DNA of 510 nt from Escherichia coli (GTDB lineage Bacteria; Pseudomonadota; Gammaproteobacteria; Enterobacterales; Enterobacteriaceae), in the NCBI RefSeq assembly GCF_003334255.1, contig NZ_QOWU01000228.1; one strand, given 5' to 3'. Numbering within the stretch: position 1 is the stretch's first letter; each line of letters begins with the position of its first letter. This document shows positions 1 through 510 of this stretch, piece after piece. Below the pieces are notes generated by a model. The model searched no databases. It was not told where the DNA came from and saw only the letters and a program-made list of their open reading frames with translations. A program made the position numbers and the translations under genes.

Positions 1-138
1 GGCCTTGAACTGAAAGCGCCTGTAACTGATGACATCAGCAGAGCACTGGCTTTTGCCATTAAGTGGGTGGCGGTCGGTGTTGCTGTGTCCCCGATGCTGT
101 ATGGGCTGGCAAAACTGGTCATTGCGTTGAAATCGTGA
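1..138 (+). CDS. 3' end of an unidentified ORF (5'-truncated by the window); C-terminal 45 aa with a hydrophobic, possibly membrane-associated tail
   Basis: Frame 1 is the only + strand frame open from position 1 (frames 2 and 3 hit stops within the first 30 nt). It translates to [45 protein letters not shown] and ends at TGA 136-138. The stop sits immediately before the RBS of the next gene, giving operon-like packing. No family recognised; it does not resemble the C-termini of lambda R or P22 gp19 endolysins as I recall them. Confidence 0.4.
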
Positions 139-139
139 A

Positions 140-146
140 GGGAGGA
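140..146 (+). promoter_or_regulatory. Shine-Dalgarno (GGGAGGA) for the small membrane protein gene
   Basis: GGGAGGA at 140-146, core GGAGG at 141-145, about 7 nt upstream of ATG 153. Strong match to the anti-SD complement with canonical spacing. Confidence 0.6.
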
Positions 147-152
147 TTAAGC

Positions 153-284
153 ATGTCAGACAAACTCATAACGCTGGCGAAGATCCTCTGTGTAATTGTC
201 GGCATTTCATTTTCACTAATGCTGGTTGCTCTTTTTCTTTCCATGGCCTGGATGATGTTGTCTTCGTCGGGGCTGCTGGGGTGA
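153..284 (+). CDS. Small single-pass membrane protein, 43 aa, function unknown (lysis-cassette-associated)
   Basis: ATG 153 preceded by a strong SD; stop TGA 282-284. Translation [43 protein letters not shown]: short charged N-terminus (D, K, K), then about 26 uninterrupted hydrophobic residues, then a short Ser/Gly tail, consistent with an N-in single transmembrane helix. The track ORF 63-284 shares this frame, but its first 30 codons start at GTG without an RBS and overlap the frame-1 ORF, so ATG 153 is the likelier start. Confidence 0.6.
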
Positions 285-295
285 ACATAAACCGA

Positions 296-510
296 ATGCT
301 TTCCGCGTTTATCGTTATTCTGCTGGTGGCCTGTGGAGCGCTGTGGATGGCAACAGACCATTACCGTGATAACGCGATTACCTACAAAGCGCAGCGCGAT
401 AACAAAGCCAGTGAACTGAAGCTGGCGAACGCAACCATTACTGATATGCAGGTGCGCCAGCGCGATGTTGCTGCGCTCGATGCAAAATACTCGAGGGAAT
501 TAGCCGATGC
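296..510 (+). CDS. Rz: Rz-type inner-membrane spanin (i-spanin), N-terminal part; 3'-truncated by the window
   Basis: Frame 2 from ATG 296 reads [71 protein letters not shown] and is still open at the window end. N-terminal hydrophobic signal-anchor ([18 protein letters not shown]) followed by a charged, helix-prone periplasmic region. From [14 protein letters not shown] to [13 protein letters not shown] it closely matches lambda Rz as I recall it (memory, not a database hit). Missing from the ORF track, presumably because it has no stop inside the window. An alternative in-frame start is GTG 281. Confidence 0.85.
493..498 (+). promoter_or_regulatory. Probable Shine-Dalgarno (GAGGGA) for the embedded Rz1-like gene
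   Basis: GAGGGA at 493-498 lies inside the Rz reading frame a few nt upstream of ATG 507. Lambda has AAGGAG at the equivalent position ahead of the Rz1 start (recalled). Confidence 0.4.
507..510 (+). CDS. Rz1: Probable start of the embedded o-spanin (Rz1-like lipoprotein) in the +1 frame of Rz; only the start codon is inside the window
   Basis: ATG at 507-509 is in frame 3, i.e. +1 relative to Rz. It spans the D and A codons of the Rz motif ELADA, which is where lambda Rz1 starts (MLKLKMM...) as I recall it. The coding body lies beyond the window, so the signal peptide and lipobox cannot be checked. Confidence 0.5.

Follow-up and report, generated by a model that had tools for sequence, protein, structure and literature searches.

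Loss of the ancestral ATG start and candidate replacement starts of the spanin gene Rz in an Escherichia coli prophage allele

The i-spanin gene Rz of phage lambda, with the o-spanin gene Rz1 embedded in it, is among the closest described counterparts of the gene treated here, an Rz allele that we call type A, which begins inside a 510-nucleotide (nt) stretch of Escherichia coli prophage DNA (the window; positions are counted from its first letter) and whose translation start is in question. Lambda Rz and type A have in common the phrog_13/PF03245 family, the N-terminal helix and the segment after it, an Rz1 embedded in the +1 frame, and a late-operon position 3′ of holin and endolysin. Lambda Rz has an unambiguous ATG start (MSRV) that overlaps the stop of the endolysin gene R by 4 nt (ATGA), a geometry that a GTG at position 281 of the window would share; in type A, in contrast, ATA stands at the place of this ATG, the overlapping codon is a GTG two codons before it, and the place of the endolysin gene as upstream partner is taken by a 43-codon membrane open reading frame (ORF).

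A second described system is the lambda holin gene S (S107/S105), which has two in-frame starts separated by a few codons, the longer product having a basic residue that the shorter one lacks; its products have opposing functions, and the gene carries a regulatory RNA structure. Type A resembles S in that it encodes a lysis-cassette membrane protein with two in-frame starts near the N-terminus and an Arg only in the longer form. It differs in that no special RNA structure is predicted around the Rz starts (z = −0.97) and in that its two starts are known from sequence alone.

A third comparison is with the sister alleles of types B, C and D from Stx and other lambdoid prophages (for example Stx1_14040 and PhiR12_3), which have the same cassette and the same Shine–Dalgarno (SD) motif as type A and whose Rz coding DNA is 83–90% identical to it; type B also has the 43-codon ORF ending in GGGGTGA. 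The sister types keep an ATG (MNRV/MSRV) 1–7 nt past the stop, with the GTG out of frame, whereas in type A residue 4 is Met or Ile and the helix sequence differs (LSAF...). Finally, termination–reinitiation pairs with a −4 overlap (Huber et al. 2019, PMC6728339; PMC10666635) are like type A in geometry, in lying on the same strand and in carrying the SD sequence in the last codons of the upstream gene, but the downstream start of the studied pairs is known, whereas in type A the GTG is a candidate and a second start lies 11 nt downstream. Such ATGA and GTGA overlaps are the commonest and most efficient coupled geometry, and re-initiation drops by 40–80% at +14 nt (PMC10666635).

Loss of the family's ATG start in type A

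We find that type A has lost its ancestral ATG start, which is now ATA at 287–289. The features on which the comparison turns are the following.

153–284, plus strand: 43-codon ORF (phrog_4906) with a single membrane helix; TGA stop at 282–284
269–272, plus strand: GGGG, the sole candidate SD sequence for GTG 281; weak (hybridisation −5.4 kcal/mol, aligned spacing 5)
278–284, plus strand: GGGGTGA, a strong, conserved SD sequence that includes the final Gly codon of the 43-codon ORF and its stop; invariant in alignment A1
281–510, plus strand: i-spanin gene Rz, running off the window; its stop is at window-equivalent 752–754
281–283, plus strand: GTG, candidate Rz start with a product of 157 amino acids (aa), MNINR...; overlaps the stop of the 43-codon ORF by 4 nt (GTGA)
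287–289, plus strand: ATA, aligned with the family's ATG start (alignments, phrog_13); lost ancestral start and possible weak non-canonical start
293–295, plus strand: CGA, Arg codon homologous to that of lambda Rz Arg3 (ungapped alignment to lambda and sister alleles)
296–298, plus strand: ATG, candidate Rz start with a 152-aa product, MLSAF... (WP_371739992.1); 11 nt past the stop of the 43-codon ORF
299–352, plus strand: coding region of the N-terminal membrane helix of Rz, read from the translation

A protein-guided scan of viral contigs gave 80 loci, over which the junction was aligned; the allele of the window is type A. Sister alleles read GGGGTGAAAGAGAGATGA[A/G]CCGTGTT or GGTGGTGA[T/A]ATGAACCG, lambda reads ATGAGCAGAGTC and the window reads GGGGTGAACATAAACCGAATG. 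Divided into codons, type B, with the same 43-codon ORF upstream, is GGGGTGA-AAGAGAG-ATG-A[A/G]C-CGT-GTT; types C and D, with other upstream genes, are GGTGGTGA-[T/A]-ATG-AAC-CG[T/C]-GTT; lambda is GT-ATG-AGC-AGA-GTC, with the ATGA overlap onto R; and the window is GGGGTGA-AC-ATA-AAC-CGA-ATG, from which point the alignment runs without gaps to the HYRDN motif. By homology, AAC-CGA corresponds to Asn/Ser2-Arg3 and ATG 296 to Val4 of the sister alleles, and the phrog_13 alignment leaves Ile3, encoded by ATA, opposite profile position 1. An earlier note on this DNA had proposed comparing start positions in homologous Rz genes; made here, the comparison aligns the ATG of the relatives (MSRV/MNRV) with ATA 287–289, a codon which that note had overlooked, and its remark that lambda Rz has Arg at residue 3 is correct, the protein beginning M-S-R-V.

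Type A has a 2-nt spacer after the stop where the other types have 1 or 7 nt, so that the GTG of a pre-existing GGGGTGA motif has been brought in frame with Rz, and it is because the ancestral ATG is gone that the start has become ambiguous. An alternative history is that GTGAAC-ATAAAC may be an imperfect 6-nt duplication of ATGAAC. Proteins beginning MNRMLSAF or MNRILSAF were considered as LSAF-helix alleles with a true ancestral ATG and rejected, as the DNA shows that the NCBI prokaryotic genome annotation pipeline (PGAP) had placed their starts on ATA; the pattern ATGAACCGAATNCTTTCCGCGTT had no match in the viral contigs. Further downstream, the juxtamembrane segment of Rz (window 338–362; homologous in loci L052, L060, L061 and L073) occurs in two forms, one of them ALSLGLNHYR, and their free combination with different helix and start types points to mosaic recombination within the first 30 codons of Rz.

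Public annotation agrees with the earlier note that the start is ambiguous, since four different starts are in use for type A. GTG 281 (157 aa, MNINR...) is used in the largest protein clusters, P0001 (374 members) and P0003 (980 members). ATA 287 (155 aa, printed as MNRMLSAF...) is a PGAP choice, found as P0045 in L209 and as P0066 in L210 and L211 and checked on the DNA, and ATG 296 (152 aa) is the start of RefSeq WP_371739992.1 and the PGAP choice in many complete genomes. The PhiR12_1 record starts at ATG 347 (L001 3347), which removes the membrane helix, and some RefSeq genomes, such as L003 (NZ_CP144885.1), have Rz1 annotated at the locus and Rz not. An exact look-up of the three alternative Rz protein versions in the cluster collection gave none. 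The Rz of the K-12 Qin prophage is of another type (DUF2514), which makes K-12 start-site datasets inapplicable here, and literature searches on start-site profiling of type-A prophage Rz and on the PhiR12 source phages gave nothing usable. Spanin starts are often mis-called, a recognised problem (Kongari et al. 2018, PMC6139136), and since the membrane-targeting signals of lysis proteins are N-terminal, correct N-termini are essential for their recognition and study.

Stop/start overlap, ribosome binding and the conserved arginine

Read directly from the sequence, GTG 281–283 overlaps TGA 282–284 and is in the Rz frame, as the earlier note had it; the codons between this GTG and the in-frame ATG 296–298 encode N-I-N-R. 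The purine stretch GGGGTGA named there is also present, at 278–284 rather than at 277–283. GTGA at 281–284 has the NTGA form of the stop/start overlap in −4 coupled pairs, and measured from the stop of the 43-codon ORF the three candidate starts lie at −4 (GTG 281), +2 (ATA 287) and +11 (ATG 296). Between the preceding in-frame stop (128) and ATG 296 the Rz frame has no canonical start other than GTG 281, and CGA 293–295 is translated only if initiation occurs at GTG 281 or ATA 287. From base composition, the chance of a canonical start within the 5 codons before ATG 296 is ~26%, and GGGGTGA is found equally in sister alleles whose GTG is out of frame with Rz; an in-frame GTG is by itself not statistically remarkable, and its weight comes from the comparative context.

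Initiation was scored with an in-house simplified script in the style of the RBS Calculator (RBS, ribosome-binding site), with and without local folding.

AUG 153 (43-codon ORF): SD AAGGGAGGA, hybridisation −11.3 kcal/mol, aligned spacing 6; dG −4.9 with folding
GUG 281: SD GGGG 269–272, −5.4 kcal/mol, spacing 5; dG −5.5 without folding, +8.8 with folding
AUA 287: SD GGGGUGA, −10.6 kcal/mol, spacing 4; dG −10.6 without folding, −1.6 with folding (no start-codon term)
AUG 296: SD GGGGUGA, −10.8 kcal/mol, spacing 12 (penalty 4.0); dG −8.0 without folding, +4.1 with folding

AUG 153 is the best initiation site of the window in this model. GGGGTGA had been described as at best a weak SD sequence, a view that we do not uphold: it forms a helix of ~7 bp with the anti-SD sequence, at −10.6 kcal/mol comparable to the SD sequence of the 43-codon ORF itself. 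That it is distant from ATG 296 is correct, with an aligned spacing of 12–13 nt against an optimum of 5 nt. GGGGTGA is instead optimally spaced for ATA 287, which places a non-canonical codon with a well-positioned SD sequence at the family's start position; in types B, C and D the aligned spacing of the motif from the true ATG is 3–8, and in both sub-lineages of type A its spacing from ATA is 4–5. Scores differ among haplotypes, the model preferring GUG (−9.97) over AUG (−7.96) in the AGC haplotype (L005) and GUG (−7.95) over an adjacent AUG (−2.67) in L061, where GUG is its best canonical site. AUA initiates at ~1–2% of the level of AUG, and GUG at 10–100% (Hecht et al., bioRxiv 10.1101/063800). 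The predicted use of GUG 281 differs from that of AUG 296 by no more than about three-fold, that of AUA is an order of magnitude lower, and both canonical Rz starts are predicted to be much weaker than the start of the 43-codon ORF unless upstream translation opens the region.

We surveyed the residues ahead of the N-terminal helix in Rz-family cluster representatives (50% identity) of 140–170 aa with a clear N-terminal hydrophobic stretch. Lys or Arg is present there in 34 of the 37, and all close ATG-start alleles read MSR or MNR. Basic residues favour the cytoplasmic side of the membrane, the positive-inside rule. Rz is a class II inner-membrane protein with an N-in, C-out orientation (PMC6139136). 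The hydrophobic stretch is present in type-A Rz and an Arg precedes it in the GTG and ATA products only, GTG 281 being the one canonical start that retains it; the earlier note's point that a GTG 281 product places Arg before the helix thus falls in with a residue that is near-universal in the family. By hand count, the GTG product has a charge of +2 on the cytoplasmic side (amino terminus and Arg) versus ~+1 in the 15 residues past the helix, and the product of ATG 296, which as claimed has no basic residue ahead of the helix, shows no charge bias. Under the rule, a form lacking this Arg would not be constrained to the N-in, C-out orientation required of Rz. A distant Rz homologue, P0160 (51% identity), has the N-terminus MNINFSWRMMVIGVLL..., with MNIN as in the GTG 281 product, which is probably a coincidence.

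The junction of the window (at least 95% identity over 255–330) is found in 609 of 5426 complete E. coli genomes, among them sequence type 131 (ST131) and Shiga toxin-producing E. coli (STEC) strains; the allele is also present in plaque-forming phages such as PhiR12_1, and related haplotypes occur in Stx1a-converting phages. About 170 type-A loci resolve into 42 haplotypes over 153–510, in all of which G281 is present, the GTG always standing 3 nt before ATA. The census patterns fixed ATAAACCGA, a second pattern fixed T282, G283 and A284, and 287–295 was fixed in part of the census; as T282 and G283 are in addition part of the upstream stop, G281 is the one letter of the GTG that could have varied and that carries information. 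The same sequence is seen at 287–295 in the protein-guided sample, which these patterns did not constrain. At 285–286 the census shows only A285G (Asn/Ser) and a single C286T, which is silent in the GTG frame, and polymorphism across 285–295 in the 42 haplotypes gives too few sites to tell coding sequence from spacer. ATG 296 is present in 40 of the 42, missing only where another ATG has arisen upstream.

The reading frame itself is well kept. Counted from GTG, it has 157 codons in 144 loci and 166 codons in 12, with a handful truncated, so that a full-length Rz ORF is found in 156 of ~170 type-A loci, with Rz1 intact. The ratio of nonsynonymous to synonymous divergence (dN/dS) in the N-terminal half of Rz is 0.23–0.31 within type A, at dS 0.22–0.38. 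Together, this ratio and the number of full-length ORFs suggest that Rz is kept under selection at the protein level and is still expressed from some start.

One sub-lineage (L061, L071, L147, L210 and L211) has a Dam-like DNA methyltransferase gene (PF02086) between the small ORF and Rz, at 707–1474 in L061 and at 716–1483 in L210 and L211; the point of insertion coincides exactly with the GGTGA motif, and the insertion puts an ATG directly before the GTG. The sequence there is TGA-CAGGGGGC-ATG-GTG-AGC-ATA-AAC-CGA-ATT-CTT, the codon equivalent to 296 being ATT. Neither Rz (166–167 codons) nor Rz1 is disrupted, and the first canonical start to follow is a GTG within the helix-coding part. As initiation at that GTG would delete the helix, an extension (M)(V)SINR must be translated for a functional i-spanin to be made in this sub-lineage, which, granted such function, shows an N-terminal SINR extension to be compatible with it.

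Weighing the candidate starts

We judge GTG 281 to be the best-placed candidate for the start that yields a functional i-spanin in type A, at odds a little short of even. A ribosome ending the 43-codon ORF at UGA 282–284 would re-initiate on the overlapping GUG through a −4 overlap like that of lambda R/Rz, and in the MNINR-helix product the conserved Arg would remain on the cytoplasmic side, as insertion in the N-in, C-out sense requires; ATG 296 would probably fire too, at a comparable level and giving the Arg-less 152-aa form, and ATA 287 might contribute a few percent at most. We favour GTG 281 because its −4 overlap is that of lambda, because it keeps the conserved Arg, because it is the sole canonical start found in all type-A loci and because an extension appears to be translated in the ATT sub-lineage. 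The codon used, the coupling and the consequence for topology are what we infer from these comparisons.

The earlier note had tied Rz expression to translation of the 43-codon ORF. Coupling to upstream translation is plausible, but it would not be specific to that ORF, as Rz starts range from a 4-nt overlap with the preceding stop to 8 nt past it, behind R in lambda, behind the methylase in L061 and behind other ORFs elsewhere, a tight spacing behind any upstream gene. The Rz sites are poor when scored independently (dGtot +8.8 and +4.1, versus −4.9 for the small ORF) and no promoter-like site was found between the 43-codon ORF and Rz, both of which fit a dependence on upstream translation.

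Several observations weigh against GTG 281. Its GGGG SD sequence at 269–272 is weak and is not conserved in the AGC haplotype, with positions 269 and 273 varying among haplotypes; GUG is intrinsically a weaker initiator than AUG (bioRxiv 10.1101/063800); and with folding removed the model prefers AUG 296 (−7.96) over GUG 281 (−5.47) in the haplotype of the window. Conservation of the GTG says little, since T282 and G283 lie in the stop codon and the motif serves as an SD sequence even where the GTG is out of frame, and a search for family alleles that start directly at the GTGA overlap (GGGGTGARCCG...) returned only one unrelated chance match. The ATT sub-lineage has an ATG immediately 5′ of the GTG, so there is exactly one nearby ATG in each sub-lineage, which fits the use of ATG in both equally well. 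L061 is moreover nearest to the ATG-296-bearing haplotype of L060, so that its ATT is probably derived and not ancestral. The inference of selection is itself weakened, as type A has exchanged segments with ATG-start alleles by mosaic recombination, which confounds dN/dS within it. An argument from parsimony (outgroup GTT, L061 ATT, window ATG) for a type-A ancestor without ATG 296 was withdrawn because L061 is nearly identical to L060 and probably nested among ATG-bearing haplotypes.

A serious rival, which we rate as less likely, is that Rz starts mainly or only at ATG 296, as in RefSeq: ribosomes at or retained on GGGGUGA would begin at the AUG that comes first downstream, 11 nt beyond the stop, the Arg-less Rz of 152 aa would still insert correctly, and 285–295 would be a spacer, the remnant of the old 5′ end. 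ATG 296 outscores GUG 281 in the window haplotype with folding in (+4.1 vs +8.8) as well as out (−8.0 vs −5.5), and AUG is the strongest initiator (bioRxiv 10.1101/063800), but the SD spacing of 12–13 nt carries a penalty of ~4 kcal/mol, roughly 6-fold. This arrangement has a precedent in a minor class of E. coli gene pairs spaced by +9 to +12 nt with the SD sequence in the spacer (PMC10666635), and PGAP chooses this start in many complete genomes. Its product nevertheless lacks the basic residue that 34 of 37 relatives have, and with a charge balance that is about neutral by hand count its orientation would not be enforced. The distribution of the codon can be read both ways, as ATG 296 is kept in 40 of 42 haplotypes and missing only with a new upstream ATG, whereas the L061 sub-lineage manages without it and the alternation of Met, Ile and Val at this position resembles ordinary variation at a helix edge.

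It is unlikely that ATA 287 is the start, with AUA driven by a strong, optimally placed SD sequence to make a low level of a 155-aa MNR... protein. The codon occupies the exact start position of the family, with GGGGUGA at a spacing of 4–5 in both sub-lineages despite their different upstream genes, and AUA initiation is measurable; at ~1–2% of AUG, however, its output would fall well under that of the flanking GUG and AUG even with their poorer SD geometry, and AUU (infC, pcnB) is the only confirmed non-canonical start in E. coli (bioRxiv 10.1101/063800). The PGAP starts at ATA in L209 (P0045) and in L210 and L211 (P0066) are homology transfers and not evidence.

Between GTG 281 and ATG 296 stands the Arg codon CGA 293–295, so that the layout of a dual start, with a basic residue only in the longer form, is present in type A. 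By analogy with lambda S, it might be a true dual-start motif in an i-spanin, or, as a variant, a natural case of AUA initiation in E. coli, maintained at the ancestral position by an optimally spaced SD sequence; we regard this as improbable. If the dual start were true, the longer form would be N-in, C-out and functional, and the Arg-less form would have a mixed or inverted topology and would titrate or delay spanin activity.

Least probable by our estimate is that type-A Rz is unexpressed or decaying, the loss of the ATG having inactivated a gene that is dispensable in many conditions and the flanking starts being accidental: the ancestral start codon is indeed mutated, Rz is unannotated at the locus in some RefSeq genomes, a few loci have truncated ORFs of 30–147 codons and an in-frame GTG is about as frequent as expected by chance, but 156 of ~170 loci have a full ORF with intact embedded Rz1, dN/dS is 0.23–0.31 at dS 0.22–0.38, 609 of 5426 complete genomes carry the allele, as do plaque-forming phages, PhiR12_1 among them, and two canonical starts with usable SD sequences flank the lesion.

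Type A offers a clean natural case of a gene that would survive on flanking start codons after losing its ATG, and a simple system for weighing the effect of a single N-terminal Arg on spanin topology, although it touches no major open question.

Prophage context and neighbouring features

The 510-nt window is 100% identical to Escherichia phage PhiR12_1 (PV340549.1 23647–24156) and to many E. coli chromosomes, and by annotation its neighbourhood is the late lysis cassette of a lambdoid prophage, in the order class II holin, YdfR, lysozyme (R), 60-codon ORF, 43-codon ORF, Rz with embedded Rz1, and terminase genes. Holin, YdfR and lysozyme lie upstream of Rz on the same strand, the lysis-cassette location of an i-spanin gene. 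Rz matches the phrog_13 Rz-like spanin profile with E = 4.5e-75 (residues 4–157 against profile positions 2–154), PF03245 (Phage_lysis) is precomputed on all of the 120 close homologues listed, and Rz1, annotated as an Rz1 family lipoprotein, has an intact lipobox (LVVSAC) in translation. The remaining features of the window are as follows.

1–138, plus strand: 3′ part of the 60-codon ORF, with a hydrophobic C-terminus (L001 coding sequence 2956–3138, and translation)
138–146, plus strand: SD sequence of the 43-codon ORF, AAGGGAGGA, 6 nt before ATG 153; hybridisation −11.3 kcal/mol
507–509, plus strand: ATG start of the o-spanin gene Rz1, embedded in the +1 frame relative to Rz (annotation of L003 2007–2192)

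The lysis cassette thus holds two small membrane-protein genes of unknown role. The 60-codon ORF, between the endolysin gene R and the 43-codon ORF, belongs to phrog_1115 (unknown function; E = 1.4e-42). The 43-codon ORF belongs to phrog_4906 (unknown function; E = 2.1e-23) and is intact in nearly all type-A loci; its dN/dS against relatives is 0.4–0.9, indicating weak constraint. It accompanies Rz in many Stx and lambdoid prophages, and in some of its alleles (L006 986–1132) the first codon is ATA with an ATG one codon upstream (ATGATATCAGAT), so that the start shifts between alleles there too.

An antisense ORF of 80 codons crosses the junction (window 119–361, minus strand), with nothing to suggest that it is a gene. 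A terminator-like hairpin, with a 14-pair stem and a T-rich tail, lies ~80–110 nt to the left of the window (L001 2890–2922), between the endolysin gene and the 60-codon ORF and within what is expected to be a single late transcript.

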